This document shows, in pieces, positions 1 to 64,000 of a stretch of 64,000 bases of DNA. Position 1 is the first letter of the stretch. Every line of letters begins with the position of its first letter. The position numbers were made by a program, and so were the translations under genes. The notes beneath the pieces were generated by a model. The model was not told where the DNA came from and ran no database searches. It saw only the letters and a list, made by a program, of their open reading frames with translations. Source of the stretch: Candidatus Omnitrophota bacterium (GTDB taxonomy: Bacteria > Omnitrophota > Gorgyraeia > Zapsychrales > JAKLDJ01); assembly GCA_022703585.1 (NCBI GenBank), contig JAKLDJ010000001.1, positions 310,891 through 374,890 of the forward strand, read 5' to 3'.

Positions 1-1000
1 GGGGGCCTATTTTTTCATATTTCAGGAAAGAGCTTAAGAGGTTTCTTCCTTGGGGATTATCCGGGCTATAATCAGCCAGCATTTCTCTGGTAATCCTGAG
101 GCGGATAACACCGGGTTGATCTTCGACGGGAACAATGTGCTCCTCGCCCCAGGGGACAGGATTACGCCGCAGATCTTCCATGATGGCATCTTCCCACCAT
201 GTTGTTTCTGCGAGGCCTGTCTTGAGATCGACGATTTCTTCGGATTCCTCGCCCTGACCTTCATCGTCCATCATCCCTGTCATCCCCATCATCCCCGGCA
301 GCACCATTACCAGCAGGCCGAGGTCGAAAACAGGGATAAAGGAGAACAGATTCTTTTGGGAAAACTCCTGTACGTCCTGTTCTGGTTTCGGCAATTTCGT
401 GACACAAAGAGTAAAGAAAGCAACCGTGCCATACTTATAGGAAGCCGTTTGAAGCAGCCATTTTAATGCCTCCACACCCACAATCGCTCCTCTACCCAGA
501 GATATTTCGAAACCGCCAAAGCCAGCCTTTTTTCTCAAGCGACCTAAAAGCGTCTCGGCAAGAACTGTCTCTATGGATAATTCATCATCTTCGAGATTAC
601 CTGTTTTATTAACAATACGTCTGTTGTCGCTTTTTCTTCGAACAACATCATCGTTATCGACGTAGTATTCTTCAAATAATCGCCTCCCGCTCTCGAGATT
701 TCCAACGCGTTCCGCTTTGAGCCTGTCCCCAGCGGAAAGCATGTCGCCGATCATCTGATAGATTTGCCCTCCTAATCCCTGCAAGGCCAGATTGGTCCTG
801 ACGCGGTTAAAGTAAATTGTGTCTAATGCTATCGCAATGGAAATTGTTTCATGTTCGTCATTTTCTTCGGTAAGCCGTCTGAGGAAGAAGGCATCGGAGT
901 TGGAAACCACACCGTCGACCTCTCTTTGCAGATAAACATCAACGCGATCTCCGCTCGCATCGGAGATAACGGCCTTGAGGATGTAGCTGTCGCCGCCTCT
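1..1000 (-). other. C-terminal-most module in the window; function unknown; acidic tail
   Basis: I translated 2-1201 codon by codon: ...LALQGLGGQIYQMIGDMLSAGDRLKAERVG...MMDDEGQGEESEEIVDLKTGLAETTWWEDAIMEDLRRNPVPWGEEHIVPVEDQPGVIRLRITREMLADYSPDNPQGRNLLSSFLKYEKIGP. There is no stop before position 1. Confidence 0.5.
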
Positions 1001-4000: not shown

Positions 4001-7000
4001 GATAAGCCTGCGTGCGATACGGATCAAAAGGCCTGTCTCGTTATACGCCGCATAATAATTCTTATCCTTAACCAGATCGACCATCCTGCGGTCGGCGGCA
4101 TAAATCCCGTCCACGATTAAAATCTGCCCGTTCTTAAGATGCAGTATTTCTTTCTTCTTGTCATTACGCTTTCCATCTTTAAAATCATACGGCCCCGGAA
4201 TCCAAGCCGGCCTTCCTTCAATAATTTTTGCGAGCGCATCAAGGATAAGAGGCCAGGCATAAGCATCCGGGGAATCAAAGTCGTATAAATAATCACCGGC
4301 AAAATCGTGGATATACTCTCCGGATGCGTCCTGAATCGGAAGTACGTCGGTATCGGGGTTAAACTTCTTAGGGTCGTAATGCTTAGGATGAATCTTGTTC
4401 TTAAAGAACCTGTCCATGGGGAAGATGGCAAATATCGCCGGTGCCATGTCGCAGAAAGAGTCGGCGGCGATTGATTTTCCGCTCGCCGTCGGCCCTGCGT
4501 CTAAGAATATATTAATCTCGTCATCCTCGGCAAATTTAAGAAGCCTGACGAGCATTTGATCGCGGCGCTTCATAAAGTTTCGCTCATAAACATTTCTTTC
4601 CTTCTTGGAAGGCTTGAAATAATTCGGGTATTTAAGAATAATCGTTTTCATCTTCTCTGGAGATTCGCGCCCTAAGAGACCGACATAATCATACAGGTCC
4701 GAATAAAATTCTCTGGCCTCGCTGGGCGCCCTTAAGTCATAGAGCTCGAGCATATCGATAGAATTCTCTGTCTCGCTGATAATCGCGAAGGACCGGCCAT
4801 TGTGTTTGAGGATATAATACCGCTCTTCATCAAGCTCCCCGTGGATAATAGGCAAGTGCGCCCGCCGGACATCATGGATGCTGATCCGGGTCTTAGTATA
4901 ACCCGAAGGGCTCCCCTTGTAATCAGGGATTGACAAAGGCAACGGATAACGGCCGTCCGTCGGGGTCTTGCGATGATATCCGGCCCCCGGATAGGGCATG
5001 CTGGGTATAAAGGAAGGCCTGGTCTCGGGGTTGATAGCCACAACCGCATTGTGCAGCCGTATGTAGGGCTCTGTTTGCCGGGTGATTTTCGCCAACTCGC
5101 CCCTGCGGGTAAGCTCGATAACCGCATCATAGAGTTCACGTTTGATCTGGCGAGTAACCATCAGCCTCCTAAGCCTAATGGTGACAAAATCTTCAAAAGA
5201 TAAATAATAACCGTTACGGTAATACGGCCGGGAGAAATCAAGGTCAAGGGAATCGGCTATGTAAAGAATTTGTAATAACGGCCTCAAACGGCTGCCTAGA
5301 TGCAGATTTTTACTGTTGAGTTTGTGGTGCACGGAGGCCAAAGTAATGGCGGCTTCAATCGTATCATCGACACGCGCAAATACTTTACGAGATTTGACGA
5401 CATCGATAACGAGTTTTTGATGTTTCTGCCTTAAGGAGTCGACTTCCTGCCGTCGCATCAAATGCGCCGAGCGCAAATCTTTTTGCAAAGATTTATGAGC
5501 CTTGCCAAGTTCGTGAATAAGGGCGGCCAAGACCAGAATCCTCTTATCCTCTGTCCCCAGGTTAAGCTCCCGGGCTAACAGGAATGCTATTTTTGCGGTC
5601 CGGAAACATTGCTGCTTAACGCCGTCGATAGCGCCGGAATAGGCGTCTATAATTTTTATCAGAAGGCCTTCGAAAATACCCAACGGTCTCCTGCCGACCC
5701 CCTTGTAAGGGACATATCTTCTTAAGAATTCTAGGAATTCCGTTGCCTCCGCGCGCGCTGCCTCCTCTTTTGTCCCGCCAAAATGAATAAACTTGTGCTC
5801 TGCGGCTAAATCCTGGACCAGATACGACGTAGCCATCTTCAGGGCATCGGCCCTGGAGATTTCTCTGCCTTCCTCTCTCGCTTTCTGTATTTGCACCGCC
5901 ACTTCGGTTTCAATAGGGGAAGGATTTTCTTCAAGCATTTGTTTTAAAGTCGAGAGGGCGGCGTAAAGATGCGCATCCTCCGTTGCCGAGGCGAGATACA
6001 GGTTGATAATCTGCGCGGGGGTTAAATTAAGCCGGTCAACCAAAGAGTAAATAGCCTGTTCTGTTCTAAGCAAATCGGCTTCGGGGTGCTTGCGTTGCCA
6101 GTGTTTAAAATTATTTTGGGCGATAAAATCGCCAAACGTTTCTGTAAATAAGCTTGAAAGCCGATTACCGCGCGGCAGGAAAAACGGGAACAGACACATC
6201 AGGGACCCGTCTTCGCCCTGGCCCGGCTTATGATAATAGTCAACAAAGGAAATCTGGTCTTCAATGACCCCCACAACAGCTACAACCACTTCCCGGGCGT
6301 GAGGGCCATTGGCGCCAATGCGAATGATATCCCCGGGCATAAGGGATATAGACCCGTGTAAAGCGGCTATATTTTTCGCATCCGCTTCTCTGAGACCATG
6401 GAGCATGTAGACTGAGGTATCTATGAATCTTTCTGCGGCGACAGTAATATGGCTAAAGACCTTCGCATGAAACCCATGTTCGGTATAAATTTTTAACTCG
6501 GCAACCGCGTCAAATCTCCTTTTGTCACTTTCGCTGATTGTTCCAAGAAGCAAAATACCCAAAGCCATAACCTTCCAAGGCAATAATAGATCAAGCGGCA
6601 AGAGGAGTGCCCGAACCGAACCATCTCTATCCGATTCTGCCTTAGGCGAACGGGAAGCGGCCATTAAGTCCCTAATCAACCTGGGGATCCAGCCCCAATC
6701 AACACCAACAAAAGCACCGAGCTGCTGGCTGTCGTCTCCATCTTGGCTCTTGAGTTCTGCTAATTCCTGTTGCAAGTGCTTCCTGATCTTCTTTAAGAAT
6801 TCTTCAGCTGGCATGCCCGGATTCTCTATGGTGCCAATCACTTTCTTTTCCTTCTTTCCGGTCTGCGGATTAACTTCTTCTTTGGTCAAATAAGTCACCG
6901 GGGCTTCAGAAATTTCGCCTGAGGTCTCTGAATCAAATCCGCGCATATGAATGCCGTTGGGCCCGATCAAGACATAGGCGCCTTCACCGCCGAACTTTTT

Positions 7001-10000
7001 CGCCATACCCTTGTCGCATTCGAAATTGGCGTAATCACCGTCTTGCGTCATAAAGGCGGCCTTTAATTTGCTTAAGACATTGTGCCCTGTCAACCAATTC
7101 GGGACTTTAATCAACGACTGGATCCTGGCAATACCGATTCTTTCGCGATAGTATTTACAATGGTTCGGTTTGATGCGGGTTGTCGCGTCCGAATACCAGG
7201 AATTGACAAGATGAAGCGCCTCCCAGAGTGTGCGGAGCGGATAGCGCGGGTCTTTGATAACTCGCGAGATCGCCTCCAAGGCTGCAAAGATGTCCGTGCC
7301 TGTATACGCCTTCCCTCGATAAGTGATGATGATAGAGCCATCGTCTTCCACAGGGAACCAGCCGTGAGATAGCAGATTGTTGTAGGGGTCTTTTAAGAAG
7401 AGGTTGAAGTTTTCTCGATAGAAACGAGCCAAGGACTGCAGGGCAGGATTAGTCGGATAATTGGCCTGGGTGAGCTTGTTGTCGCCTAAAAGCATTGCGT
7501 TAATCTCGTCGATAACGGCAGTACCCCAGTCTTTATGGCTGGACCAATCTTTGCACCACCATTCAACCGAAGCATAGGCCTGGGTGTTAATGGATTCAAA
7601 GACCAGATACCACCACTTTCCTTCGGCAAGAGATTTTGATAATCGATCCTTAACTGCAGAGGTAATCGTCTTTGATAAGCCGATGGCCTCCTGCCAAAGA
7701 GCCAATTCGGCAGCATCAGCCCCGGCCTCTGCCCTGGCCCGGTGGACCTGAATCAGTTCCCGGACAAGCTCATTCCACCAGACGCCAGAAGTCTTGCCCA
7801 TACCGTTTAACCCTACAAAAGGATCGGGGACTTCAATGCGTTTGAAATGGCCGGCAAACTTCTCCCAGCTATCGAGTTGTTGACTATTCCACTGGCCGCT
7901 ATATTGTTTATACCCGTCGACAAACTTCTGGCGAAGAGTTGATACCTGGCCGCCTAAGAATTCCTTCTGGAATCTGTCCTGGTCTTCAATGTATTCGGCA
8001 AGGCGGGCAGTCCACCAGAGAAAATCATTCACGTTCTTAGGATCCGTGGCCCTCTTCGCTTTTACCCAAGCTTGCGCCCTGCGGTTAAAGGCGGAGAAGG
8101 CAGGAACAGGGCTATCGGTATAGAAGTTAAAGTTTTCATACCAGGGCAGATGAATACCAAGCAAGTTGCCAAAGGCCCAGAAATCATGGTTGCCGCTCAC
8201 ATAGAAGACTCTGTCGGGAGCGGTCTCAACAAGTTCCTTGGCCAGGTTAAAACATTTCATACCGTATTTACCCCTGTCCAAAAGGTCGCCATTTAAGTAG
8301 ATGGCCCCATTCATGGTCTTAAGAGACAGCCCCTGGATATTGAGTTGCTCTTCAACCGACATGTTGGGATCGATCTGGCCTTTGAAACCACAAAGTTGAT
8401 TTAAGGCATCGCTCAGGATAGCGGCAAATCTGGCGATATCGCCATGATAATCCGAAATGACAGCGATTCGCGGCAGGCAACCGCTGCCGGGTTTCTTTAA
8501 TTCCTTACGGATCTCCCTGAGAAGTAATTTAATTTGCTTAATGCGTTCTTTTGAATCAGCCTTGTAGATAAAGCCGATTTGTTCATAGGTGTCTTCCTTG
8601 CCGGAGAGCGTCCCCAGTGACATAAGCGGCAACCCGGCCAAGAGCAATAGTTCAAAGGCCCCGAATAGGGTCATCGCCCACAGCTCATCACCGCTTCGAA
8701 TGCCGGTATCGCCTTTTTGCGAAAGCGACGATTGTGCCGTCATCATAAGGGGGCTGGAAGGCTCGCCTGTCTCTTCGAGGGCGATGGTCATCAGGCCGCG
8801 GGAGTTCAATCGCGCTTTATAGCCTAAGCGAAGAAGGACTCTAAGAATTCCTTTTAATAACAGGTCACTGTCGGCATAACGGCCATTCTGTTCCTCTTCA
8901 ATCTTTTTCAAGTCCTCAAAGAAACGTTCAAGATACAAATTCCGTAATCCCTGAACATAGAGATCCCTGGCTGCTGCATCTACGTCCGGGATGACATACC
9001 GGATACTATCTTTAGACACACCGGGCCGATAGTTAAACTCACGAGGAATCAAGCGCCCGTTTTTCTTTTCATATTGAGCGAAAGACGATTCCGAACCCAG
9101 AAGCAGCCGTCCGCCTTCTCTTAAAGCACGGGTGAGCGAGAGCCAGAGGCGATCCCGCTCCCAATAATTCTTATAATGAACCACAAGATTCATGACGCGT
9201 ATAAGGTCGACACCCTGGGGATATAACCGAGCCAAAGTATCAAAACTGCCAAGATGAATCTTGGTATTCGGGATTAAATTCAAATGCCCGTCCAGATATT
9301 CCTGCGCAGCCCCGACAATCCACGGGTTATTGTCAATGCCTATAAGCTCTATATCTCTATTGCCGAGTCTATTACGTAATTCAAAGAAGGTCGGCGAAGA
9401 AGCCTCACCCGGCGCGCCCGGCACAGAACCAAGCCCGACATCGGCCATGCGCCTGACTGTTCCCGTTGATTCCATCTGAGGAATAAGATGACCAATCATA
9501 TATTGATCAACTGAAATCAGCCGCATGGGTTCTGTATAGGCGAGAGTCACGCGTCCCCGGCCTTGCACTAAGCCGGCCTGATCATTCAGGGCGCCTCTTA
9601 CCGTTCCCAGCAGGAATATGAGGCCAAGGCCGCTGATGTCAACCATAGCGCGCAGGTCACCTTCAGGCTCATTGGGTTGACCGGCTGAATCGGGGACAGT
9701 CCCCGCTTCGGCGGGCCCGGCCTCGGTGAGGCCCAGCAGGGCCGAGGCGGGGACTGTCCCTTCTTTCAAGGATTTCAGCGCCAGAATAATCGCGTACGGC
9801 CAACCGTTACTGGAATCCCAAAACATTGCTCGGCAACGGTTCCTGATTTCTTCCCGGCTAACCGTTTGCGGATCAAGCCCGGACAGTTTAATACCGGCAA
9901 TCGTCACGCTGGATCTTCTGGAGTTAAACACAAAATTCCGAGGCGTGAGGCCGTGCACATCGACTCTATTTTCTATTAATCGTTCGATAAGCGTATTCAT

Positions 10001-13000
10001 CAGGGTGATTTCAACGGCATTGAGCGAACGCCGGTTAAGGACATCGATAATAGATTCCTCCCGGCCGGGGATTTCCGGTTTTGGATTTATGTTGCGCGAC
10101 CTACCGGAATTTAATATTGATGTTCGCGGCCTGTCGCCGGGTCTGGGTGCAGATTTTCCTGCGATGAGTTCTTCCCGGCCTATATGCCACTGACGCTGCC
10201 TGTCGGGATTTAATACGCGCGGCTTGTCGCTTGTAAACACAGATTCTTTTCCGTCTACATCAATGACGACTTGCGCGGCATTCGCAAGGACAACCGAATT
10301 AGCATCGCCGACAGAAGTGCCGGTAGATTCGCTCCCGGCAGCCTCCCGGTCAGAATCATCCTCTTTTTCTTGAGCTTCTTCTTGCGCATCTCTTACGGAA
10401 ACAACAGGAGAACCGTAGCTTCCCATTTGGAAGAATAAGTGGTTTTCAGGGAAGCCGGGTTTATTAGCGGCGGCTTTTAATTTTTCAACTAGGTTTTCCC
10501 AACGTTCTGCGGAGGCGATAGTTTCAAGAACGATGCCAATATGGATAACCTCTACCTCTTTTTCGCTGAGAATCTGAGCAAGAGAGTCAAGAGCAACAGC
10601 CCGTTCTCTCGCATCCTTAAAAGGAGCAATAACCTCAAGGATGTCGTGAATAGAGACGCTGTTCATCCCTATACGGGTGAGGGTGTTTTTAAGAGATCGG
10701 CGGCTGGCGGCATCTTTTACAATGATAACAGCCAAATGCATCAAGAGCGCCAGCGCTATTCCACCCAACAATAAAGCGGAGAGAACAACAACCAGCGGGG
10801 TAAACACGTGGAGGTCATCAGTAATATCGATTCCATACTTGGCAGCACGGCTGACGGCGCGCAGGATTTCTTTTTGGGCGCGCTCGATTTCCTCAGGCGG
10901 GCACGGACGCTCGAGTAACTCAAAATAATAGCCAAGCTTCATCCGCGTATTTTGCTCCAACCGCCTTGCCCATTCAATTTTGGCCTCCTGGCGTATCGCG
11001 TTTTCGATAGCCCTTCTTTCAAATTCAACCTCGGGAGAATACCGTTTAAACTCGGTTGCCGTCAGGGAATCAATCGTGGATGTGCCGTAGTACTCTGAAC
11101 GCATCGTATATCGAAGAATACGGAATATTTCCCGGGCGCGGTCTTTCTCGCCGGGCAAATCACCTATCAATAAAGCGGCAGCCTGGAAGTTCAACTGAAC
11201 GTTAAAGATATTTCCTATTGTTTGACGGGTATTATGAATAACTTCAATAAGATTTTCGTAGATAGCTTCGGGGGCGTAACTTGTTAATCCGATCAGGATA
11301 CCGTCCGGCGGCGAACGGGCCAGGTAAATACGGGAAAAATCGCGGCCAAAAACCTTGTTGAATTCTTTGGTGAAAGTAAGCAGCATGGCCTTAAATAAAT
11401 CATCGGCACTGTTATAGCCAACGGCATAATTCATGCCGTGGCCGCCGACGGAATTCTCTGGTCCCAACGCCTTAAGCGGGCTCTCCAGCGCAGGGTTTTC
11501 CCTCACTAATTCCTGGATAGGCCCGTAGATATAGCGGGGATTGAGCAATAAAACGACGGCGTCGTTCGGCAATTTATCCTGGGCAACCCAGCTAAACCAT
11601 TCGCGGCTCCCCAGGCGCCTAACCAGGCCGTCTCTATCCTCGTCTCTTCTGCGGGGAACAGGATAAGTGCCTTTGCCTCTTTTGCTTTCTTTCCCTGCCA
11701 TTTTGACCAGCCGAGACAATTTTAGCCTGCTCCTGGCGCTGAGCACAAACTGTATCAAAGACTCTGGCTGCAATTCCTCGGGAGTACCCATCCCGTAATC
11801 GTCTTTGCCAAGTTTCTTGGAAATAGTTTTAATACCGGCCTCAGCTACGGTGATGGCGGCGTTTAATAACTGAACAGCCCGCCATCCCGAAATCTTCATG
11901 CCCGCCGGCAGGAGAACATCATCGGAGAGATTCACCGCCCAGAGAGAATGAGATATCTCTATGCCGCCCTCATTGCCTGCACTGCGAATCTCCTCTAACA
12001 TCTCTTTTAAAATCTCTTCTACTGCGCGGGCATTCTCGGCTTTTAGGACCACAAACTTTTCATCGCCCCGGTCATTCTTCCAGATCACCCAGCTTTGCTT
12101 AAACTCTTCACTCTTTCCTATTAAAATTTTCCCGACACGGTTGAGAAACCTGGTTGTCGCTTCGTCCCCGTAAAGGTCGTTGGCCACGCTTACATCATTA
12201 CCGTCCAGGACAATAAGGTAGAGCCGGTTAATTTCTTTTCGGTTTCGGTTGATGAACTGTATCGCGTTATTGCGGCCGTTATGCTGATTTTCCAAGTTCT
12301 CAACCTGGGCCAAGGCGACAAAGGCAAAAGCCATGTTTGCCGCAGCCATGAGTGCCTCAAGGCCGGCAAAAATACCCCCGGCCGGCAGCAGGGCAGCAAC
12401 TTCACCGTCCTCTGCCCCATTGTCCGCAACGCCTTGCGAAATCGTTACGTTAAGCGGTATTTGTTCTTCTTCACCTTGCGCCGCTAACAGCCTTTCCCGA
12501 AGAATATCCACAATAGCCATAAAATCAAACGAGGGATAATAAGAATATTCGGTATAGTATTTCAACGCCGCATCAATAATTTCTTTTGACAAAAGAATAT
12601 TCATGAGAGAACGCGGAACGCTTTCAACGAAAATAAATTTATACATGGGGCCAACTCTATGCGAAGAGACCGTATTAAACACATCCCAGAATAAAAAGAG
12701 CAATTCTATCTTCGTCATTAAGTCTTCCCTTGAGAAAATAACCTCTTCCGCTGCTTCGTAAGTGGCGACTTGTATCTCCTTTAGTGAAGGATCGAGGCTG
12801 AAGGCAAAAGCGAATTGATCTTCTTTAGCCACCTTTCTAAACAATGACTTTCCCTTGAATAAATGCCTCGCCCTCGGGCTCCCCAGTAGAGCGAATACGG
12901 TTTCCTGGAAATTCTCCGGAGTGACCGTCCGACGAGGATACTCGGAGCGGACATCGCAAGTCGCAAATTCACCGGTGGCAAAGTCCAGAAATGGGCTAAA

Positions 13001-49000: not shown

Positions 49001-52000
49001 AATCTGGCATACGAATACGCCGGCAATCGCCATTAACCCGGTTAACCAGAGCGGCAGTCCGAATAGGGCATTAACACCAACGAATATTCCCATGCTAGTG
49101 ACAAAGGTTCCGATTTCCTGAAGTTTAGGTATTATGCGACCAAATTTTAAATAATGCTTGGTGCCGAATTCATCAGCTTCTCTCATTGCTTTCGGCCAGG
49201 TCCTCTTGGTTTCTTCCGAAGCCTGGTATTTGCCAGTATTAATTATCTGGTCCAACATGCCGTCAAAGAACCCGACCGGCTGCAACAAAGACTTAAATTT
49301 CCTGTATTCATCAGTCTCTTGTCTCGCTAATAATCCTGATCTTACGAGTTTTAATGCCAACAAAGACAACAGGATAAGCGCTGCGGTAGCAATCGTATTT
49401 AATGAAATACCGAAAGGTAAAATACCAAAATACGATAATGCCGCCGCCGCAAACCAGAGGATTAACGATGCTATTAAAGATTTATATTCAAAGAAATCAA
49501 TCGCACGCTCAGTTGCCCTCTTCCAGTTGATAAACTTGGTCGGCCGGGTAAATACCGGGAAATTGCCCTCGATAAGGCTCTTCCTTAAGATAGGCCAGAA
49601 CTTTCTATCGACGATTTCCTGGATAATCGTGTTATGCAAAGTAGGATTATTTTCACGGCTAATCTGGAATACCTTGCGGATAAATTTATATGCATCGGGA
49701 AAAGAGAGTTCTTTTAATGACTCTACTGATTTTAACATTTCCTCCAAGAGGGAAATTTCTCTCTCCAGCGATTGTTTCTTTTTGTCATCCTGTTCTTCCA
49801 CCAACTTCTTTCTTAAATTTTGTAATATCGGTGAAAATGCTTTAAAATTATCCGTTATCTTTCTCAAATCTTCCAACGTTAATCCGGCCGCTTGTAACGG
49901 CTCATCATAATCAAAGGTTTGCAGAATACGGGTTAAGAAAAATTCTTCAAAGTAAATGCGCCAAATCCAATTATCTCCCGCTCCTTTCCTGATTTTTCCG
50001 GAAATTTGGTCATACTGAACGCCAAGGATGTAAAGGATATTGGAGCCTTGATTAACAGCTTCAGGTATTAACTCCGCTGGCTTATTATTTTGGTCTAATT
50101 CTGCGGCCAATTTCATTAAATGCCTTGTCCAGGCGATTTGACACTGCAGGTTACCGCTGAAGAATTTCAACATTTCTCTTAAAAAGGCCTCTTCCAGAGG
50201 AATTTCGACCCAACCCTCGTATGCCTTAATGCCTTCTGCTTCAAGGCCTCTAATCTTTTCTTCCAATATCCTCTTTTTATTTTCATCTTTTTCCATTTCC
50301 AAACTTTCCTTCAGCACGGCTAAAATTGCCTGTTTGTGACCGCTATCGGCACGGGCACGCTCAACTTTCATCCAAAGGCCGTTATTCCATGAAGCCGGCA
50401 TGGCTGTTACATTTCTTGAATCCTGATAACCCCAAACCTGTTCGCTGGCTTCTGTTTCATCGGCCAAACGGGTAATCAATTGGGCAATCAGTTTATTAAT
50501 CATGTAATCCAAAACATTAACAGCCCTATTCCCGCGCAGGGTATTACTCTTGTCAATAACTTGTACAGTTATGCCCCCGATTTCCCAAGTGCCTTCTGTT
50601 TTATAGGCTAATCCTCTCCTAGCGGCCATTTGTAAAAATATCGGGCGGTAAATAACAGCGACCATCTGTTCAAAAATCATGGCTCCGATTGCATCCATAT
50701 TCATTGCTGATGGAATATCTGTCCTGGCGTTTATCGCCCTGATTGTATCTTTTAAAGCTTCGAGCGGCTCCGGAACCTTAGTAAACCCTTCTGCTCTCGC
50801 CTTAATAGCATCTGCAAGGACTTTCTTCAAACCTTTAGCAACGTTTTTGATTGTTGACGGATAAAAGACATCTATAACCTGCTCGGCTGCTGTGATGTCT
50901 CTTGCTGAATCAATATTTCTCATAAATTCCGCCAAGCCTTTTATCTCATCGGACTTGGAAGGAATGGTACTTGTTCCCGCTGTTTTTGTACTGTCCTCTT
51001 TCTTGGAGGTTTTTCTTAACAATTTATATAGCCAGGCAAACCAGGCTAATAATATCGCCGCGCCGACAATCATAACAACCGGCTTTTGAGCGCTTCTTCG
51101 GGTATCTTCATATCCGTTAAGAAGCGCCTCTCGTCTCTGGTTGGCCTCTTGAAGGTCTTGTGAATCCCCTTTGAGCTGTTTATTGTGGCCGTTGACATAT
51201 CCCTGAATATTCGAATCATCAGTTTCCTGATGTTCTATGCCGGCCATGCGCTCATAAGCCCTGACGGCTGAATCTTTAAAGTGACGCGTATATTGAGCAA
51301 ACCAGCTGTTGCGCCCGAAGCGGTCGTAGGCTTCAGGGCTGTATCCGCCCTTGACGTCATCGGTTGCGGCACGATAATCCGGCAAGCCCTGGACATCTTT
51401 TGTTTCTTCGCGGAATTTATTCCAGTTGATTCTGATAAGTTTTCCGTTAAAGTAGGTTCTCGGCACAACACCCTTGAAATCAAAAATCCAATCAGGATGG
51501 CTCTCTTTATATGCCCTGTAATCCGACAATAGCTTCAAACCCTGGGGTGTCGCATCGATTTCGTAGATATCAACAACGCCCTGCAGATACGCGTTCTCAC
51601 CATTGGCCATAACTATTTCTCTCGGAACCGCAATGGCGACCTTGTGAGGCTGTTCCTGGGATAATTTGACACCAAATTGATTCTTGATAATTCCCGTATT
51701 GCTGGGAACTTCGTAATCGTTATAGTAGAGCCTTTGTTCCTGAGGTTCAAAACCAACGCCGCCGTAGGTGTTATAGAGAAGGCGGCCGTCTCCTAACCTC
51801 AAGGCCATCTTCTTTAAAGTGCGCTCACCTTGTTTGGGACGCCGGTCGACAACCTTGTATTCCAAGATCGGTTGGCCCTGCGGCCCTTTGACAACCTCTA
51901 AGTCCGACGAATGGGCAACCCAGTTACCATCGAAGACTCTGACTGAAACATCATTCTTAACCACGACCTGGCTATAGGCATTGATGTCTTCATCGACATT

Positions 52001-55000
52001 TCCTTCTGCGTCAAACTTAACATCGTAAGCGTAGCTCCCGCCGCCAAGGCCCATCTGGGTTAAGAATTCGGTTCCTAAATATTCTTCGGCGGTATTATTA
52101 TTGTAATCGACAAAACTGATGGTGCGCGGCGTGCCGTCCGAGAATTGGGTAACCGGGTTAATGTGGTTGTAGGCCTCGACACGGGCAAAGAGATTGCCTT
52201 CGGCATTCTTGATTTCCTTGTAGGATTTTTCCACAAACTTAAAGTGCTTAATCAGGCTTCTGTTGGCTGCCAGATAATCATAGTTTGTATACGCCGGGTC
52301 GTTCATAACAATATGATCCGGCAAGATTAAGGCATCCGGCCGAAGAGCCTTTTTGACCATGTAGCTGACATAACCCGTTGTGTCATCAATCCGTGTTGAG
52401 TTGGCATAGACATAACCGTGTTCGTGGCCTAAGGAGTCGGAAACCGTAACCAAGGAGTACTGGGCAATGCCGTAGCGGCCGACATCTTTCTCGTCATGGG
52501 CATCTAACGGATCGAAAGAATAAAAGCTGTAGAATTTAAGGTCGCCGGGGCGCATTTCAAACTCACCATTTTGGTTACGGTGGCCAGCCCATCGCTCGAT
52601 AGTGCGACCCTGCGTTTCTTTAATCTCCTTGGTGTCGATAGCGGCTAACAGATTATTGGCCCAAATCTCCGCGTGCCGCAAGGAAACTATCCTGATGGAA
52701 TTTTCCTTAAGCAATAAATCTGTCAGGCGTGAACGGCTGATCGCGCCGGTATTGTCATTCAAAAGATGATTTTGACCGTCAACTAATAATTTCTTCTGTC
52801 CATCCGGTTGCAGCATATAGGTCTCAACCAGCGTGGCAATATCCAAAAGCCTTAAATATTCTCTTGAATACTCTTCCCGGTTTGATTCGGCAATAAAGTC
52901 GCTGTAGCCTAATTCCTCCACGCCGCGAGGCCGGAAAGATGCTCTAATGGTTTTTAGCAAGTCCTCCCTTTGTCCGATCGTCGTCTTTTGCAAATCCGTT
53001 AAGGTCGCAAGCGTAATCTCGGTGCCATCGCCGTAGGTACCTTTTTCTTTTTGCTCAAGAATACCATTTTCTGCGCCGTTTCGTATTTCGGCAAAATAGA
53101 GTTCGGGGCGAATCATATCTCTTACGATGTAAACCTTGCCTTCGGTCATACCATTGCCTAAAATCCGCAGAGGATCCTGCTTGCTCACTAAAATACCGAC
53201 CGAACGGATTCGGCCGATGGTTCCCGTGACTATATCCCCTTGGCTAAAGTCATAATCATAATCAACGCTACCGACCTCTTGATTTTGAATATCTCTTAAG
53301 ATAAATCGTATGCGGTTCATAGCCGAGTTAATCTGGATGAGCTCATCACCGGTGTTGGTGTCAAAGATAGAAACCCAGCCCTTCAGAGGCATATAGTCAG
53401 CCATGCCTGTGCCTCTCACGGCGGTGATGTCGTAGACCTGCGGCCGATATTCATTCTGATAGGAAAGTCCGGTGACAATAGCCTCAAACCCTAATTGCTT
53501 AACTTTCGGTATAAGATTCGCAATCAAGCGTTCCTCATTCGATGACCAGCGATTACCCAGGTAAGCAAATTCAACGCTTTGATCATTCAAGGCTCCAGCG
53601 ACAAACGTCTTTTGGCCTACTTTATTGCCGGTTAGGTGACCTTTGACATCATCGGCATAAATCGGCACGTCGAATACCGTGACAACACCCAATGGTCTGT
53701 TGAAGAGGTTTGTGATTGCTAACGGCTGGCCTTTAACGGGCTTAATAATACCGTCTTCTAATCTTTGGGAATGAGAAAGAACCCAAGGCTTACCCCTTGA
53801 GCTCATGAGAGTCACATTGAAATAAACACCTTGGTAATCTTCCAAGGCATTCGTAAAATCAATGGCCGTAATTCTGCTCACCTGGTCATCAACGGCAATA
53901 GCACCAAGATTGGACTCTCTGTTAAAGGCATCGGTCCACTTGACTTCCAGAGAATTTCTGTCAAGGCGCCCTCTCTCGACCATGTAGTACTTGTTAAGAT
54001 GCTGGATAACTTCACCGTTAGGAATCCTGATGGCAACTCCGTCTCGATTGAGCAGATCCCGATCATACTGAGGTGTGTTGAACCCGGGTTGGCTCAAATC
54101 AAATCTGGTTATTGTCTGTTTATCGTAATTGATCTCTCTGATCAAAATGTCGCTATTTCTGACATACGTCCTCGCGGCCTCCAAAATCAATGAGCGGTCT
54201 ACAGGATTAATCCTGTAGGTTTCGGCGACAGTAACAGGTATACCGGTTTCTGCATCGACGCCGGCATTATGACTCTTGACGATTCTCACGGTTTGCCCGT
54301 CAGAATTAACCAGGCGAGAATTAACCGGTGCGTTGCTTTGACCAAGCCAGCTGTCGACTACCTGCTGATAGGATCCTATTAAGGGGGGCTGATCAAGCTC
54401 AATGCTATTGACCGTTGACCGCGCGTAATAACCGGCATTAATAATAGGATAGTTTTGAAGGCCGGTATAACCGCCCCAAACAGCCGTTGTCGTCACCGGA
54501 AGCTGTTTGTCGGCGGTGGGCGTGCCAATGGTCTTATTGAACGTGGTCACGACCTGCCCGTTATGCAGATAATCGACGTGAGCAGACGTCCTTCGGTTAG
54601 TGCCGGAATAATATTCCACATAGTCTTGCACGGTAATACGGCCCGTGGTATTACCGTCCCGGTAATTAAAGTTCCTGATTCCGGTAACCGGACGGTTCTG
54701 CGCGTCATACATCTGGGTGAAGACTTCGCCTTTAACGAAATCGCTAATCCGGGCGGTTAAGCGGCCGTCTTTCCAAACATAGTGATCGGCGGTGCGGTTC
54801 TTTCCATTGGTCCTGGTGTTAAAGACATCTCTTTCAAATTCATAGCCGCCGCGATAATGAGGAACCTGGCGCTCGTTGCTGCTGTCGGTGGCCTCGCGTA
54901 ACAAGCCGTAAGCGTCAATGGTTTCCCGGACCCTCATCGAGGGTTCGCTTAAGTAATCAAAATCTTCTCTGTTATTTTCCCAAACCTTCTTCGCTTCGTC

Positions 55001-58000
55001 GAAATGGGCCTGGCCGCGGGTAATCAATGAATCCGTGGCCTTGTCTTTGGTTGTGCTGGCAGAGGTCAAGTTAACCCAGTCGCGGGTGGTCGTCGTAGAA
55101 ACAACGCCGTTATCGCGCAATACTTCATCGCCGGTATGAAGATCATAGGTAACCGCCGCGGCAACACCGCGATTGTCGATTGTGTCTTCCGTCGTCACTT
55201 CCCGGCCGTTGAAGTCTTGTTTGCGGATAAATCCGTTTTCATCCAGGCGGGTGAACCCTTCCTGGACTAACTCGCCGTGGGTCTTGATTCTTCTGGCCGG
55301 TGTGGTGCCGATCCAATAGCCGTAACGGGTCTCGGCGCCGTTGCCTTCATGGAGATAAACCGGCGCGCCGTACAGATCCCTATACATAAGGTTGGACATG
55401 ACCGCTTGGGTGTCGCCATAATTCATCGTCACCGCGTCTTCGAAGCTACGAACCTTGTTACCAGTCATGTCAACAGCTTCCACGATAGCCGGAACACCGG
55501 CATTGTTGGTGCGGCTGCCGAGCTCTACTTTACTGCCTAACGTCTTAACATAATCAAACGCGTAAGGGCCGTAGAAGTTGGAAACAATTTCGCCGGTGGC
55601 AAGTTTATGGGTTTCGGGATAGACGGTAGTTTCACCACTGACCGGATCAATTGCTGATGTGGCCGCACCGTTATTGAGATCGATCTTGACATTGAGTGTC
55701 GTTTCGGCAACTCTCCTGGCGCTCATACGGCCCTGTTCATCGATAACCGGCTGACCGGCCTCGGTGGTATCGGCATAGGTCCAGGTGATGTAACCGGTGG
55801 ACGGCTGCAGCTCGCGGCTGACCAAAGCGACATCGTCGTAGAACTTCAGGTTGTCGACAACATTGCCGTTAGCGAGAACTGTCCTCAGTTTTCTATCCGG
55901 GAAATTGGCATCGATGTAATCGGTCCAGCTGCGGCCGGCCTGGTCGCCTAAATATTCGGTTGATTTGGATTCGAACAAACCGTTGGTCAATACCGGCACG
56001 CGCCAGCTGCTGGCATCCGCGGTTAAATCACTTTCATAGCGGTAGGGCACGGCAACGCCTTTAACCAGGGCGCTTTCCTGATAGGCCGCATGACGGGCGA
56101 CACGGCCTAAGAAATCGCTAAAGACCGCCCTGGCGCCGGTGGTTTCGTTAACCGATTCGAGCGTGGCGCCAAAATTCTTAGGCGACACCACAATATCAAA
56201 ACGCCCGGTCGCTTTGGTCACAGTCGCTAATTGATTCATATTCGCGTCATACACCGGTGAATAAATTCCGGGAGCGACTTCTTTGGTCTGCAATCGGGTC
56301 GTTCTCTGAGCGCCGTCGGCGCCGGTAGTAATGCCTTCAATATTAAACATACCGAAAGCGTTGGGCGCCTGTTGGCCGTTATCGGCAGTAAAGAATTCGG
56401 GATATTCGGTTCTGGCACCGGTTAAAAGATTCTCGACGTAATTAACTTTACCGAAGGCACTGTTGATATCCACAACTTGCAATTCGCGAGACATAACCTG
56501 ATTGCCCAAATACCAGGTCACATCCTGGCGCAATTCACCGCTACGCGGTTTGCTGTCCGGACGAGTCACCATTTCCACCAAGCGGATGGTTTCGTTGGTA
56601 TCTTTCCTGACCAAGTAGACAGTGGTGCTGCTGGGAATCACGTTGTACTGCGAGGCCAAGGTCAGGCCGTATTGTTCAACTTTAATCCAGTTCAGGCTGC
56701 CGTTATACTCGGGTTTTTCGTAAAGGTAAAAACCGTTCTCAAGCTCGGTAATACCGCCTAAGTAGGCGCCGGTTTCTTTAGCGTAAACACGGTGCTGAAT
56801 CATAACCGGTTTGCCCCCAGTCACGCCAAAGCCATCCGCCTTAGCCCCGTCAAGGATGGTAAAGTCAACGTAGACTTTGCTCAAATCTTCGCTTAAGCCC
56901 TTGGTAATAATCTCGGCTAAGGCAACATCAGGGGCATTAGCTAACCGGACATAACCGCCGTCAAAGATCTCCAGTCCGTTAACCAAAGGTTCATAGCGGC
57001 CGAAGCGCCCGGTGGTCCAGCGGACGATTTCTTCGTTGCCGATTCTTTCCGGTGTTAAGAAGGATTTGGCATTAACCACCGCTAAGCCGAAATCTTCGAA
57101 ATTGGCATTAGCGTTATACGGATGGCCGACGAGTTCGGGTAACCGCAGCTTCATATCCGGGGCTAGCCTCAAGCTTTCGACAAAAGACGGCAGGTCAGGA
57201 TTGGCATTAATCAGATTGAGCCAGAAGGGAATGCCCTGGGTGGGGCTGGTTCTATCACCGGTAAGGTTGCCGATGCCGCGACCTTGGGTTAAGAAATCCA
57301 ATATCCGTTCGTTGCCGGGCGTCCTTAACAAATCGAAGAGTTCAGCGACCTTTTCCAAAGTGGCCATGAGTTCCTGTGGGCTGTCCATTTTTCTCATCAA
57401 TTCAAATTTGTAATCGGCAGTAAGATATTCTTTTAGGCCGGGCTTAAGAGAATTGTAAATAAGATCCGATAAGACCTGAGTATACGAGTTTTCGTCCCTG
57501 TCATTACCGGCGATAATAGCCGAAGTCTCCCCTAAATGCTCGACTCGGACATTGCGTATTTGCGCCATATCGGCAATGGCCTGGACCAGTCTCGGGTTAG
57601 AAACAATCTCGTTCCAGGTCTGGTTAAATCTGATCTCATCGCTAGCGGAGAGAGTGCTGAGCAGCTGTTTCTGCCATCCGGTATTAATATTGAAGGTATA
57701 ACCGCCGCCGCCGAAGGCAAAGTCAATTAACCTCTGGTAGAACGGGCCGGCATCATCGGGCAGCGTGTAGTTATACAGATGAAGGATGGTTTCGCCGTGA
57801 TCTCTGCGTATCTCGTTTAATTTCCTGACCGAGCCCATAATGCTTAATTTTCCGTCCGGGCTCGGGTCGCCATCGAAGGTCTGATCCGGAGGAATAAGCT
57901 TGGAGACGATGGTGTGGCTGTTGGTGCCCGTGAATTTTATGAATTCCCGGGTAATCACGGCGCGGTGGCCGCTGGGGAGCTTCGCGGCGCGGACATGGCT

Positions 58001-61000
58001 GTCAATGGTGGACCGGAAAATATCAACAACCCGTTCTCCGTGATAATCATTGAGGTCGGGCGTCAGCGTAAAGCCGTTCTCGGTAGAATTATTGAGTATG
58101 TCAAAGAAGATGGTGCCGCGTAATTCCGCATCCGGGAATAAATTGTTAAACAAGGTCGCTGCCGCCTGGCCCGGACGGGTAAGGTCCTGGACAAAGGTCC
58201 GGTAATTCTTCAAATCAACTTTAAGGTCGTTGACGTCATAGAGCTTGTTGTGGATCGGGACTTTATGCTTGGCGATGAATGCTCCTAAGAATATGCTCCA
58301 GCCATAAACCCAGGCCTCCTGCCGTTCGTCGAGAGCCATAAATCCTTCTTCAGCCTGCAAGGCAAATCGCAGCCAGCCATTATTCTCGTAGACGTAACGG
58401 TTAGCGCCTTCATTGACAGGGGCAATCTCTATTTCTCCATATTTGAATTTAAGATCCTCAAAGGCTTCCGGATCGGTAACGATGGCATGGAAATGCTCAA
58501 AGGTAGTTACGATGCTGGACATACGGGTAAAGATCAACGGCAAACTCTTTTCGATGATATCGGGATACATAGGATTCGGAGCCCACCAGCCATACTCCCT
58601 GCCGTCGTGCTTGAGCAATTGTTCCGTCTGGATAGCCCATTTTTCGAAGCCCTTAAACTGGTCAATCGGCGCCGGGTTATCGCTGTCAAGAATTTGAGCC
58701 CAGGCACCGCGCAGCGACGGGAATAAGGTTAAGATCATTTCTCTCTGCGCCGGTGAAAGGCGAAGGACCAGGTCATAGCGGTTGGAGGCTGAGGTATATT
58801 CGTGCAGAATATTTTCAAATTCCCGGCCTTGGCTTAACGGCGCGCCGGGGATATGAATACCGGGCCGGTTATGGGCGGCAAAATCAGCGTCATAGTCGGC
58901 ATTATCACTGCCGTCCGGATTCTTAGGGTTCCATAAGCCGATTCCCGGATCAAAATACGAGAAGAGGATTGACCCGGCACGGGTATTGCCGTAGAGGAAG
59001 TCGGTATCGATTCTTCCTGCCCTATCATAAAAATAGGCTGTCGGTAAACGATGTAGTGCGGCAATCGCGTGACGCAAACCATCCTGCTGGTCGGCCTTCA
59101 TAAGAGTAAAGATCGTGCTGTTATCCCTTAAAAACAGCCGGGTCGCGGCTTGGGCCGCTTCTATCTGGGCGTCCTCACCCGGGCCGGCCGGCTGGACGTA
59201 CCAGGCCAAGGGGTTTCCGTCTTCATCAGTCTGGATATGCGCGGCATCAGCGTAGACTTTATTCCAGACCGGCTGGATATACTCGCCGGTATAGGGGTCT
59301 CTCAAGAATTTGCCGCCGTTATCGCGGTCATCGTTATCGGCATCATACATGTTCAGGTAATCAATTTGATACTGGGTCGGGTTTTCGGTATCATCGGCCA
59401 AGAGGATTGCGACCTTGGCGGCATCAACAGCTGCGGACTTCGCAAACCCAAATTTTTCTGCCGCGACCGCCAGAGGAGAATAACCTTCCTGCCTTTGCTG
59501 TCTCATGGAAGCAATACTGGCGCGCCCTTCGCGGATGGCCTTGGTAAGGCCGGCCAGGTTATGATACCATTCATCAACCGTTCTAAAGGCCTTGTCTCTG
59601 CCTATCAGCCCCATAGCAACCTCTGTCAAGGCCTCCCCGCCAACTACGGCGAGATTCGGATTGAGTTCACGGATACGGCTGACCTCTGCCTCATCTTCCG
59701 GTGTAGCCAGCGTCGGAAATACGCCGGCAGCCTTGGCAACAGAACCTTGGTCCGGGATTAAGCTCCTTAAAACTTCCGGCATATAGGAAGTAGCGTCTTG
59801 CCGTGCGGGCGTACTGGATAAATCCTGTAAATTCGAGTTTTGCGCGTTGCGGTCAGAGGCTGATTGTTCCGGCGCGCCAAACAGGCTCCTGATGTCGCCG
59901 TAGAAATTGTAGGCCGCACTAATCCGGAGATGGCCCCCATCTTCCGGAAGTTGAGATACATCCAGTTGCAACTTTTTATAATCAAACCCGACTTGCCAAC
60001 CAGCTTTACCATCGTTAGGCTGGACCACCTCACCGCTAATTTTAACCGGGCCGTTGGTGTAGGCACCGTTAAAATACTGCGCCCCCGACAAACCTTGTGA
60101 ATAACCGGCGGTAAAATCGTGGAATTGCACATTGGCGCCCTGGTTGATGATTTCTCCGTCTTTGCCGTTGGCGCTAAGGGTTACATTAAATCTCTGGCCG
60201 AGGATGAGTTTTGCTCTCGCCTCAAACCGGTCCTGTGCGTCCTGGCTAAAACGCAGATTCGGATGAAGAGGAAGCGTGCCGAGTTGCGTATCCAGAGAAA
60301 GCCGCTGAAATTCAGTCCCGATATTATCAACTCTTCCGATAATCCTGTCTACAGAGCTGGCGGCGACCGTGATGGTAGCGTTAGAGACATAAGAAACAAC
60401 ATTATCCATATTGCTGTTATACGCCGGACGATTGTAGCGGGTTACGTCAAATGTCGACGAAAGAATATCCCGGTTGTGTTCACCGGTAAGCCAACGGGAA
60501 CGTAAGGCAGCCCTGAGATCAAACTTGAGCAGGTCATCGGTATCGGCCGGGGTCCGGTTAATATTGAGGTCTAACCGCTGACGGCCCCCGAATAAACCGA
60601 CGCCTTTACCAAGGCTATAACCGTAACGGGCCTCATCACCGTTAAATAAATTCTCCGCCCTGGCGCTGAATAATCCGTTACGATAGGTGGCATCCCCGCG
60701 CCAGGGATGTTCTTTATCTTGCGGATTAAGAAAAGCGTAAAAGTCAAAATTATCACCAGAGCGCATACCGAGTCCGTAGGTACCGAAATACTTTTCGTAA
60801 GAACCGACGATCTCCTCTTCAGGAACCATATTTAATATTCCGTTGAGGTTATAGTAGGTTTCCAGTTTTCCGCTGAGAGTGACCGTACCGTTGTCATTAA
60901 CATGAACGTAATCCGGCGTGAAAAGTACATTGACCTGGTTAGTAAGGTGCTCATTCATCAGCAGCCATCTAACGTCAAACTGTTCGTAATTTCTATTGGC

Positions 61001-64000: not shown

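Follow-up and report, generated by a model that had tools for sequence, protein, structure and literature searches.

A 64-kb Stop-Free Reading Frame, Probably Part of an Omnitrophota-Type Giant Gene, With a Predicted Divergent GT48-Like Glucan Synthase Core

Introduction

A stretch of 64,000 nucleotides of contig JAKLDJ010000001.1 (positions 310,891 to 374,890), called the window below, was found to lie entirely within one open reading frame (ORF). This ORF occupies positions 2..64000 on the minus strand, comprises 21,333 codons without a single stop, has a uniform GC content by codon position, and is open at both window edges. We conclude, with a probability of about 0.85, that the window is an internal 64-kb piece of a genuine giant gene of the Omnitrophota type. 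Its product very probably belongs to the published Archaeovorin-type or multi-enzyme class of proteins, and its source was an uncultivated bacterium of the Planctomycetes-Verrucomicrobia-Chlamydiae (PVC) group, most probably a member of the Omnitrophota. Within the product, a divergent GT48-like glucan synthase core is predicted, and it is followed by a GT5 module that lies between two duplicated UDPGP-like modules.

Results

The Reading Frame Is Open and Coding Across the Whole Window

In a six-frame translation of the window, the minus frame whose codons run from 63998-64000 down to 2-4 contained 0 stops in 21,333 codons, against 672, 757, 1,024, 1,368, and 1,487 stops in the other five frames. 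In the two other minus frames, 4.8-7.0% of codons are stops, and at this rate the chance of such an open run was estimated at about 1e-456 to 1e-669. The preliminary description of this DNA, which was made from the sequence letters, had claimed one giant ORF running off both edges and had held that two or more stops in this frame would speak against it; the count of zero bears it out. Its argument from the list of ORFs was also reproduced, since exactly 33 minus-strand ORFs of at least 60 amino acids (aa) were present, all with end coordinates divisible by 3 and all in one other frame. Because no start or stop lies within the window, 21,333 aa is a lower bound for the length of the product. 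Residue i of the ORF corresponds to window position 64000-3(i-1) on the minus strand, and all modules described below are on this strand.

The coding signature was uniform. In each block of 1,000 codons, the GC content at the first and second codon positions was 0.49-0.58 and 0.36-0.45, respectively, which gave a coding look throughout, and domain matches were distributed from aa 807 to aa 20,432. No tRNA genes, Rfam families, or marker genes were embedded in the 64-kb window. A strong Shine-Dalgarno (SD)-like motif preceded 1 of the 451 in-frame ATGs, a frequency not above that in the other frames. Since SD-like motifs are not enriched before in-frame ATGs, the ORF is unlike an operon with lost stops. 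Cysteine was depleted in the translation (71 of 21,333 residues, 0.33%), and six of these residues belonged to two CxxxCxxC motifs at aa 11470 and aa 16751.

The giant ORF is demonstrably under purifying selection. Self-comparison of the ORF gave only three pairs of internal similarity, and Tandem Repeats Finder (TRF) gave four short arrays. Two internal paralogues, aa 6820-7497 and aa 9354-10031, shared 79% protein identity over 677 aligned codons, and their identity at codon positions 1, 2, and 3 was 0.84, 0.90, and 0.69, respectively. The synonymous divergence (dS) of the pair was 0.65 and the nonsynonymous divergence (dN) was 0.126. The resulting dN/dS of 0.19 indicates that both copies were kept as protein in the giant frame.

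A Divergent GT48-Like Core Is Predicted

The region of aa ~5470-6350 (44951..47593), the most conserved module of the ORF, is predicted from profile homology to be a divergent GT48-like glucan synthase core (FKS1/callose-synthase-type, cellulose-synthase-like fold). The core can be divided into a GT-A part (aa ~5470-5920) and a transmembrane (TM) cluster, TM cluster B (aa ~5929-6330). It carries the motifs FPYEWERF at aa 5479, HWANMRMNTIYRT at aa 5546, RHDAIME at aa 5751, and NAED at aa 5844. Upstream of the GT48-like cytosolic domain lies TM cluster A (aa ~4842-5175; 48476..49477), with hydropathy peaks at aa 4842-5155, which is conserved in the relatives L003 and L020 (relatives are denoted here by locus numbers, L, or protein numbers, P). 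The layout of a TM cluster, a domain of ~750 aa, and a second TM cluster is like that of FKS1, in which the glycosyltransferase domain sits between TM6 and TM7 according to the GT48 literature. The whole arrangement is contained in a conserved region, aa 3555-6772 (43685..53338), that is collinear with L003, L012, and L020 in tblastn.

A repeat of ~68 aa with the consensus '..GWLPLxLL..ER..V..' occurs in three copies inside the GT48-like domain and immediately before it, at aa 5318-5453 (47642..48049) and aa 5593-5669 (46994..47224). The copies shared 48% identity in self-BLAST, TRF reported a period of 204 at 47651-48027, and the consensus is kept in the relatives.

A full HMMER search with aa 5460-6462 against 1.84 billion cluster representatives returned 28 proteins at E<=1e-3. 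Most of them were pieces of large proteins (2,306-7,107 aa), and the named matches were 'partial [Candidatus Omnitrophota bacterium]' ORFs filling their contigs. Two weaker phmmer matches to the core, P0120 (E 5.7e-8) and P0127 (E 3.2e-4), proved to be bona fide PF02364 proteins, scoring 71.8 and 108.3 bits, respectively, where the cutoff is 37.2. P0131, a cluster-mate of P0127 with 3,881 aa, matched PF02364 at 128.2 bits, and the Omnitrophota relative P0103 (35% identical) gave a sub-threshold PF02364 match of 27.7 bits. When 12 giant-type sequences were aligned by hhalign with P0120 and P0127, the probability was 99.3% (E 7.5e-21) over 281 columns. The alignment of close relatives against P0131 reached 97.1% (E 5.9e-11). 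A region further upstream matched P0131 at 70% (E 3.9e-5), and there FPYEWERF and HWANMRMNTIYRT stood opposite matching P0131 segments.

The comparison with known structures pointed in the same direction. With a family profile of 15 sequences, the top six matches in the PDB were fungal FKS1/GSC2 (E 0.005), and BcsA ranked far lower (E ~0.8-0.9). A core profile of 5 sequences matched nothing in the PDB, and FKS1/GSC2 appeared only once the distant HMMER matches had been added. The active-site residues of FKS1 were taken from Zhao et al. (2023; PMC10499315). D5753 in RHDAIME was opposite FKS1 D1102 of the DAN motif, and E5846/D5847 were opposite E1221/D1222, so that NAED aligned with FKS1 N1220-E1221-D1222. 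The columns of D1102 and E1221/D1222 were invariant across the giant-type and bona fide GT48 proteins in the 15-sequence alignment; FKS1 E851, D1080, and K1082 had no reliable alignment to the window core.

Two side observations concern this region. The GC content at 44000-52000 of the window was 0.435-0.45 compared with ~0.49-0.52 elsewhere, and the GC content at third codon positions was 0.46-0.47 compared with 0.51-0.61. This dip coincides with the TM-rich GT48-like core, and the relatives L003 and L012 have a GC content of 0.46-0.48. Hydrophobic codon content may partly explain the dip, and a separate history of the GT48-like module is also conceivable. In addition, P0131 carries its PF02364 domain together with DUF7689 in an ORF that nearly fills a contig of 13,069 nt; canonical-looking GT48 domains may thus occur also in large prokaryotic proteins.

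A GT5 Module Lies Between Two UDPGP-Like Modules

Downstream of the core, a complete glycogen/starch-synthase-like domain of the GT5/GT1 type was found at aa 8801-9335 (35996..37600), with matches to PF08323 (E 2.2e-31, 109.8 bits) and PF00534 (32.4 bits). Against TIGR02095 (glgA) it scored 291.6 bits (E 1e-86), under the cutoff of 328.45; judged from these scores, the module is a divergent superfamily member and not a GlgA equivalog. The PDB entries 6gne and 1rzu matched at 1e-35, and the motifs KVGGQ, NGID..WNP, SRLxxQK, EPSGL, and TGGLGDTV were kept. The AlphaFold2 (AF2) model of aa 8668-9400, built from an alignment of 55 sequences, had a mean predicted local distance difference test score (pLDDT) of 87.8 and consisted of a beta-sandwich followed by a GT-B fold. 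In Foldseek, the target TM-score of this model was 0.83-0.86 to GlgA and starch synthase IV (SSIV). The beta-sandwich before the GT5 domain (aa ~8707-8792; 37625..37882) has seven strands with a pLDDT of 81-93. In the alignment of GT5 relatives, it was common to the giant-type relatives and missing from ordinary GlgA, and it may represent a domain like a carbohydrate-binding module.

The GT5 module is flanked by two 2-kb modules that resemble UDP-glucose pyrophosphorylase (UGPase), which are the paralogues analyzed above. Copy 1 (aa 6820-7497; 41510..43543) contains a UDPGP-like domain at aa 6963-7174, with a PF01704 match at E 2e-47 and matches to UGPase in the PDB. Copy 2 (aa 9354-10031; 33908..35941) contains a UDPGP-like domain at aa 9504-9682 and was recognized by self-comparison and in the PDB. 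As a side observation, the two modules are a possible substrate of recombination or mis-assembly, and an exchange between the copies preserves the frame.

Another conserved module was located at aa 7732-8081 (39758..40807), with 43-52% identity to L001, L003, L004, and L012 and without any Pfam match even at a permissive E<=10. In the relatives this module lies on the other side of GT5, downstream of it, and the order in the window is different, which indicates that modules were shuffled around a conserved core.

Relatives Share the Long Frames and the Order of the Core Modules

The species genomes of GTDB were scanned with an alignment of GT5 relatives, and 17 loci were returned. Thirteen of them were close (34-51% identity) and came from metagenome-assembled genomes (MAGs) titled Candidatus Omnitrophota or uncultured Planctomycetales, apart from two titled Lysobacterales and unclassified 'bacterium'. 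In 7 of these 13 giant-type relatives, the frame containing the GT5 module stayed open from one end of the retrieved locus to the other, over as much as 21.9 kb and >7,200 aa, and in another 3 the module lay in ORFs of ~4,000 aa. The remaining 4 of the 17 loci, from other phyla, were ordinary GlgA genes of ~500-830 aa with 25-30% identity. The best relatives of the GT5 region were 36-48% identical, compared with ~30% for ordinary GlgA, and they included the NCBI entry 'glycogen/starch synthase, partial [Candidatus Omnitrophota bacterium]'.

The region around the core behaved similarly. In tblastn, L003 and L012 were collinear with aa 4539-6772 at 54-59% identity and then continued into GT5, and the best public identity over the core was 54-66%. 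On L020, a metagenome contig of the Joint Genome Institute (JGI), an ORF exceeding 6,233 aa follows the order of aa 3555-6208 and then GT5, with 25-35% identity. The order of a GT48-like module followed by GT5 recurred in L003, L012, L020, and P0113. The preliminary description had named Omnitrophota among the lineages with comparable giants, and this agrees with the closest relatives found here, whose ORFs come from Omnitrophota or 'uncultured Planctomycetales' MAGs and are open over loci of 17-22 kb.

Some relatives showed features of their own. L007, L008, and L009 from Omnitrophota (at about 10001-13830) carry two tandem GT5 modules in bounded ORFs of ~3,800-4,100 aa, and they match aa 13012-13486 of the window weakly. 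L006 (JBLINE010000109.1, titled Lysobacterales) has a GC content of 36%, and its frame, with tandem giant-type GT5 modules, stays open over the full contig; this contig was probably mis-binned.

Other Domains and Features of the Window

The translation of the ORF was scanned against Pfam, NCBIfam, and PDB sequences, and absences are stated at E<=0.01. These profile searches, which had been proposed in the preliminary description, matched at least 12 distinct domain families. No family exceeded two copies, the number reached by UDPGP and the radical-SAM-like modules. The annotated domains, including the GT48-like module, covered ~19% of the length, and ~81% was without an annotated domain. Catalytic signatures were retained in the M23, GT5, SDR, and Metallophos domains and in both radical-SAM-like modules.

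Candidate TM segments were taken from Kyte-Doolittle windows of 19 residues with a value above 1.8, which is a crude predictor. The 52 peaks above this value clustered at aa 40-420, 4842-5175, 5929-6330, and 6563-6810. The first of these hydrophobic TM-like clusters (aa ~40-420; 62741..63883) had peaks at aa 49, 98, 110, 151, and 399. It is followed by a peptidase M23 domain (LytM-type metallo-endopeptidase; aa 807-918; 61247..61582), which matched PF01551 at E 1.6e-7 with 31.8 bits against a cutoff of 28.7 and kept both zinc motifs, HxxxD (EHDGVD, aa 807) and HxH (GHVHV, aa 903). The next stretch, aa 1001-3000 (55001..61000), is an orphan without a homologue or domain: there was no match at E<=1e-5 in 5.8 billion proteins, no Pfam match at E<=10, and no PDB match. 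Nevertheless, this orphan stretch contains no stop and shows the usual coding signature.

On the other side of the GT5 region, HEAT repeats were found at aa ~10792-10941 (31178..31627; PF13646 E 4.6e-10, 40.1 bits against a cutoff of 27.7), with further matches to PF02985 and to alphaRep proteins in the PDB. Two radical-SAM-like paralogues shared 38% identity. Paralogue 1 (aa 11416-11876; 28373..29755) has its CxxxCxxC motif at aa 11470 (CSGRCSFC), and paralogue 2 (aa 16698-17153; 12542..13909), with a weak PF04055 match (E 0.0095), has its motif at aa 16751 (CSGACSYC). Between them lie three further modules. An NAD-dependent epimerase/dehydratase, an extended short-chain dehydrogenase/reductase (SDR), was located at aa 13579-13933 (22202..23266; PF01370 E 7e-24; PDB 6dnt and 8vr2), with GxxGxxG at aa 13585 and YxxxK at aa 13768 kept. 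A weak alpha-glucan phosphorylase-like fragment was found at aa 14431-14573 (20282..20710; TIGR02094 E 8.6e-6; PF00343 E 1e-3; PDB 2c4m E 0.005). A RelA/SpoT-family-like module at aa 15925-16423 (14732..16228) matched TIGR00691 at E 4.3e-12, far under the cutoff, and HD_4 at E 0.0033.

Toward the low-numbered end of the window, five smaller domains were recognized. These were a calcineurin-like metallophosphoesterase at aa 18511-18647 (8060..8470; PF00149 E 4e-8) in which DxH, GDxxDRG, and GNHD are present, and an HPr-like domain at aa 19168-19247 (6260..6499; PF00381 E 9e-5, 22.9 bits against a cutoff of 23) with the His-containing motif 'GFHAK'. They were followed by an HD-domain phosphohydrolase at aa 19465-19586 (5243..5608; PF01966 E 6.1e-7) with an 'HE' variant (IHELGK) of the HD dyad, a uridine-kinase-like fragment at aa 19906-19997 (4010..4285; TIGR00235 E 4.3e-8, under the cutoff), and a weak GNAT match at aa ~20366-20432 in the domain scan.

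The non-coding signals of the window were recorded as well. At 1-20000, 46 terminator-like hairpins with T-runs were counted on both strands, compared with 25.3 +/- 5.3 in shuffled sequence, and a promoter consensus scan of the same interval gave promoter-like sites at chance level. The longest antisense ORF, at 49158-49910 on the plus strand, has 250 aa and a TTG start; given how often stops occur in its frame, ~0.2 ORFs of this length would arise by chance, and it is probably not a gene.

Discussion

Evidence Against the Omnitrophota-Type Giant Gene and Its GT48-Like Core

Several observations weigh against the conclusions drawn above. Both ends of the gene lie beyond the window, and the support for it is drawn from sequence. 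The homologous region in L001, L002, and L020 is split into adjacent ORFs on the same strand, which means that a single polypeptide is not universal in the family or that those assemblies are erroneous. The four relatives with the highest identity (L003, L004, L010, and L012) are titled 'uncultured Planctomycetales bacterium', which makes the assignment to a phylum less secure. Among the domains regarded as hallmarks of Archaeovorins, SecA_DEAD, methyltransferase, NUDIX, and glycoside hydrolase were absent at E<=0.01 in the 21,333 aa; such domains may be encoded beyond the window or may have diverged too far to be recognized. The RelA/SpoT, uridine kinase, phosphorylase, radical SAM, HPr, and GNAT matches all scored under the curated cutoffs. 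The TM segments come from a hydropathy scan, which does not assign the modules to a side of the membrane.

The remaining points concern the GT48-like core. The window sequence alone had no PF02364 match, even at E<=10 (threshold 37.2 bits). The AF2 model of the GT48-like module, built from an alignment of 2 sequences, had a pLDDT of 31.8 and no usable fold. At the positions of FKS1 N1104, H1195, and K1246 the core has I, K, and G/A, respectively, and at that of R1248 it has K, the only conservative change among the non-identical active-site positions.

The split regions were located at 1-13675 of L001, 1-23003 of L002, and 18679-18700 of L020, with overlapping or abutting stops and starts and changes of frame. 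The split ORFs of L002 have 2938+, 599, 1000, and 5205+ aa, and the frame of L020 switches at ~18.69 kb. Such splits may reflect errors in low-coverage assemblies, genes that are truly split, or programmed frameshifting.

Alternative Explanations

The alternative that survives best, although we consider it unlikely, is that the ORF is translated as a polyprotein and then proteolysed into independent enzymes, like an operon in one frame. The modules are indeed unrelated enzymes that are normally found as separate proteins, the homologous modules of L001, L002, and L020 are separate adjacent ORFs, and cleavage of giant proteins by N-terminal C39/S8 peptidases has been raised by West-Roberts et al. 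(2023; bioRxiv 10.1101/2023.11.21.568195). However, M23 was the only protease seen in the window, where no other processing protease was present, and ~81% of the length is not recognizable as enzyme. Moreover, the order of the modules around the core is kept in distant relatives, and this conservation suggests that their physical linkage matters.

It is rather improbable that a gene of the same kind belongs to a host in Planctomycetota or another PVC phylum instead of Omnitrophota. In addition to the titles of the closest relatives, P0113 is titled Planctomycetota, and proteins of at least 10,000 aa are known from Planctomycetota and other PVC phyla (West-Roberts et al., 2023). The 'Planctomycetales' titles, however, come from automated third-party (TPA) MAG submissions, whereas most of the named relatives are Candidatus Omnitrophota (L005, L007, L008, L011, L013-L015, P0004, P0103, P0108-P0110, and P0129). 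The multi-enzyme architecture with GT5 has also been described for Omnitrophota.

An artefact of assembly or polishing, by which ordinary genes or pieces of different giants were joined in one frame, is very improbable. An exact 42-mer from ~63930-63975 of the window did not occur in the GTDB species genomes or the JGI metagenome contigs, an assembler could be misled by the two internal 2-kb modules, which share 79% protein identity, and some relatives have split ORFs. Random joins and indels, on the other hand, do not clear all stops over 64 kb (chance ~1e-456 or lower), and vestigial signals of a ribosome binding site plus ATG were not seen. Between the paralogues, 31% of third codon positions are different and dN/dS is 0.19, and therefore they are old selected copies and not collapsed repeats; a rearrangement between them would still yield a giant ORF. 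Independent MAGs from other studies contain the same modules in the same order, in frames open over more than 7,200 aa.

A modular megasynthase of the nonribosomal peptide synthetase (NRPS) or polyketide synthase (PKS) type, or a surface adhesin built of repeats, is suggested by nothing except the length and the earlier impression of 'modules', and its probability is negligible, since at E<=0.01 there were no condensation, adenylation, carrier, ketosynthase (KS), or acyltransferase (AT) domains and no Ig-like, cadherin, RTX, dockerin, or TSP3 repeats, and the ORF has little self-similarity. The module junctions of the preliminary description are real insofar as modules are present, but these are unrelated enzymes and do not form a megasynthase.

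Proposed Function of the Giant Protein

If the window is part of an Omnitrophota-type giant gene, the product would be a polytopic membrane protein, or a precursor that is cut into pieces. The UDPGP-like modules would make UDP-glucose in place, and this would be polymerized to a glucan that is possibly translocated across the membrane. The protein could accordingly be viewed as a membrane-anchored assembly line from sugar nucleotide to glucan. Peptidoglycan outside the membrane would be the substrate of the M23 peptidase, the HEAT repeats would provide scaffolding, and the RelA/SpoT-like, HD, metallophosphoesterase, HPr-like, and radical-SAM-like modules would contribute regulatory or accessory chemistry. 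A role in cell-surface biology and in contact with a host or prey may be supposed from the literature alone. This catalytic model, from UDP-glucose to a glucan with possible export, is a tentative one that follows from homology of the modules. No firmer is the general proposal that Omnitrophota-type giants are built around a divergent, processive glucan synthase-translocase of the GT48 type that is coupled in cis to GT5 and, here, to UDPGP-like modules.

Should this proposal be true, these giants would be polysaccharide-building membrane machines, which make a cell 'coat' or lay glucan on prey, and not only adhesins or wall-degrading enzymes, and GT48, a family treated in its literature as fungal, plant, and green-algal, would have deep bacterial relatives. 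The predicted divergent GT48-like core coupled to GT5 and UDPGP modules is what the present analysis adds. It provides a testable hypothesis of glucan synthesis from UDP-glucose and export for proteins that are otherwise described mainly by size and whose function is called poorly understood in the papers on them, and it suggests that the target of the echinocandin antifungals has relatives in bacteria.

Comparison With Known Systems

The giant ORF itself is not new. The phenomenon has been documented since 2022-2023, such proteins are counted in thousands, and the present one is no record. West-Roberts et al. (2023) distinguished 'large' proteins of at least 10,000 aa from 'giant' proteins of at least 30,000 aa. 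The ORF exceeds 10,000 aa, and its visible 21,333 aa, a lower bound, make it at least 'large', with the visible part under the 30,000-aa tier. In a published corpus there were 3,650 proteins of at least 10,000 aa and 348 of at least 30,000 aa, with a maximum of 147,155 aa (Nielsen and Lui, 2026; bioRxiv 10.64898/2026.06.07.730766), so that the initial ranking of the fragment among the largest known proteins was overstated. That genes of this length are extremely rare holds for bacteria in general but not within Omnitrophota, where they are common: of the complete Omnitrophota genomes, 93.8% encode one or more proteins of 10,000 aa or longer (Nielsen and Lui, 2026), and an ORF of more than 20 kb was present in 77 of 116 Velamenicoccia genomes according to the Omnitrophota literature.

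Archaeovorins are TM-rich, with HEAT as the most frequent domain and GT5 as the most prevalent glycosyltransferase, and they also contain GT1, peptidases, methyltransferases, NUDIX, and sugar-metabolism enzymes; most of them have SecA_DEAD-like domains (West-Roberts et al., 2023). The type Archaeovorin is the 39,678-aa protein of Velamenicoccus archaeovorus LiM (West-Roberts et al., 2023; Seymour et al., 2023, PMC10066038). Peptides of this ORF were reported to be detected, with a 3-fold rise in attached cells, and genes for components of the type II secretion system (T2SS) and type IV pili (T4P) and for glycoside hydrolases have been described as flanking other giants. The window ORF shares with Archaeovorins the very long frame, the TM clusters, the mostly unannotatable sequence, and the HEAT, GT5/GT1, peptidase, and sugar-metabolism modules. 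It also shares the lack of the dockerin/TSP3 arrays that define the Dockerin type. Unlike in Archaeovorins, SecA_DEAD, methyltransferase, NUDIX, TPR, and glycoside hydrolase were not detected in the visible 21,333 aa. The C39/S8 region of Archaeovorins lies at the N-terminus near a signal peptide, and the N-terminus of the present ORF lies outside the window.

PF08323 occurs in 153 catalogued giants, and PF00534, radical SAM, GNAT, HD, and HEAT recur among them (Nielsen and Lui, 2026). The window protein resembles Class 1 of the same authors, the 'multi-enzyme metabolic cluster', in its many distinct Pfam families, none of which is dominant. It further resembles Class 1 in its sugar module (PF08323, PF00534, and radical SAM), regulatory module (GNAT and HD), HEAT scaffold, and membrane anchoring. 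It differs from Class 1 in that histidine kinase, response regulator, phosphoglucomutase, ROK kinase, and methyltransferase domains were not found in the window, and in that UDPGP and a GT48-like core are unmentioned in the text of Nielsen and Lui. The main texts of West-Roberts et al. and of Nielsen and Lui contain no glucan synthase, GT48, or callose, and their supplementary catalogues may list the family. Among the papers in the library that was searched, none combined Omnitrophota with glucan synthase.

The GT5 module differs from GlgA and the starch synthases in its identity of ~30%, its extra N-terminal beta-sandwich, and its position as an internal module of a giant protein. It has in common with them the full GT-B domain, the motifs KxGG, NGID, EPxGL, and TGGLxDTV, and a confident structural match.

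Compared with the GT48 enzymes (FKS1/GSC2 and the callose synthases; PF02364; PDB 7xe4, 7yuy, and 8jzn), the window core scores below the Pfam threshold, contains insertions of the 68-aa repeat, and is part of a bacterial protein of more than 21,000 aa, in which fused modules resembling UDP-glucose-making enzymes lie downstream. What the two have in common is a homologous GT-A region with downstream TM segments, the TM-glycosyltransferase-TM layout, and the conservation of the DAN Asp, the ED dyad, and the motifs 'EW..F', 'WA..R....YRT', 'WT..Q', and 'K...G'.

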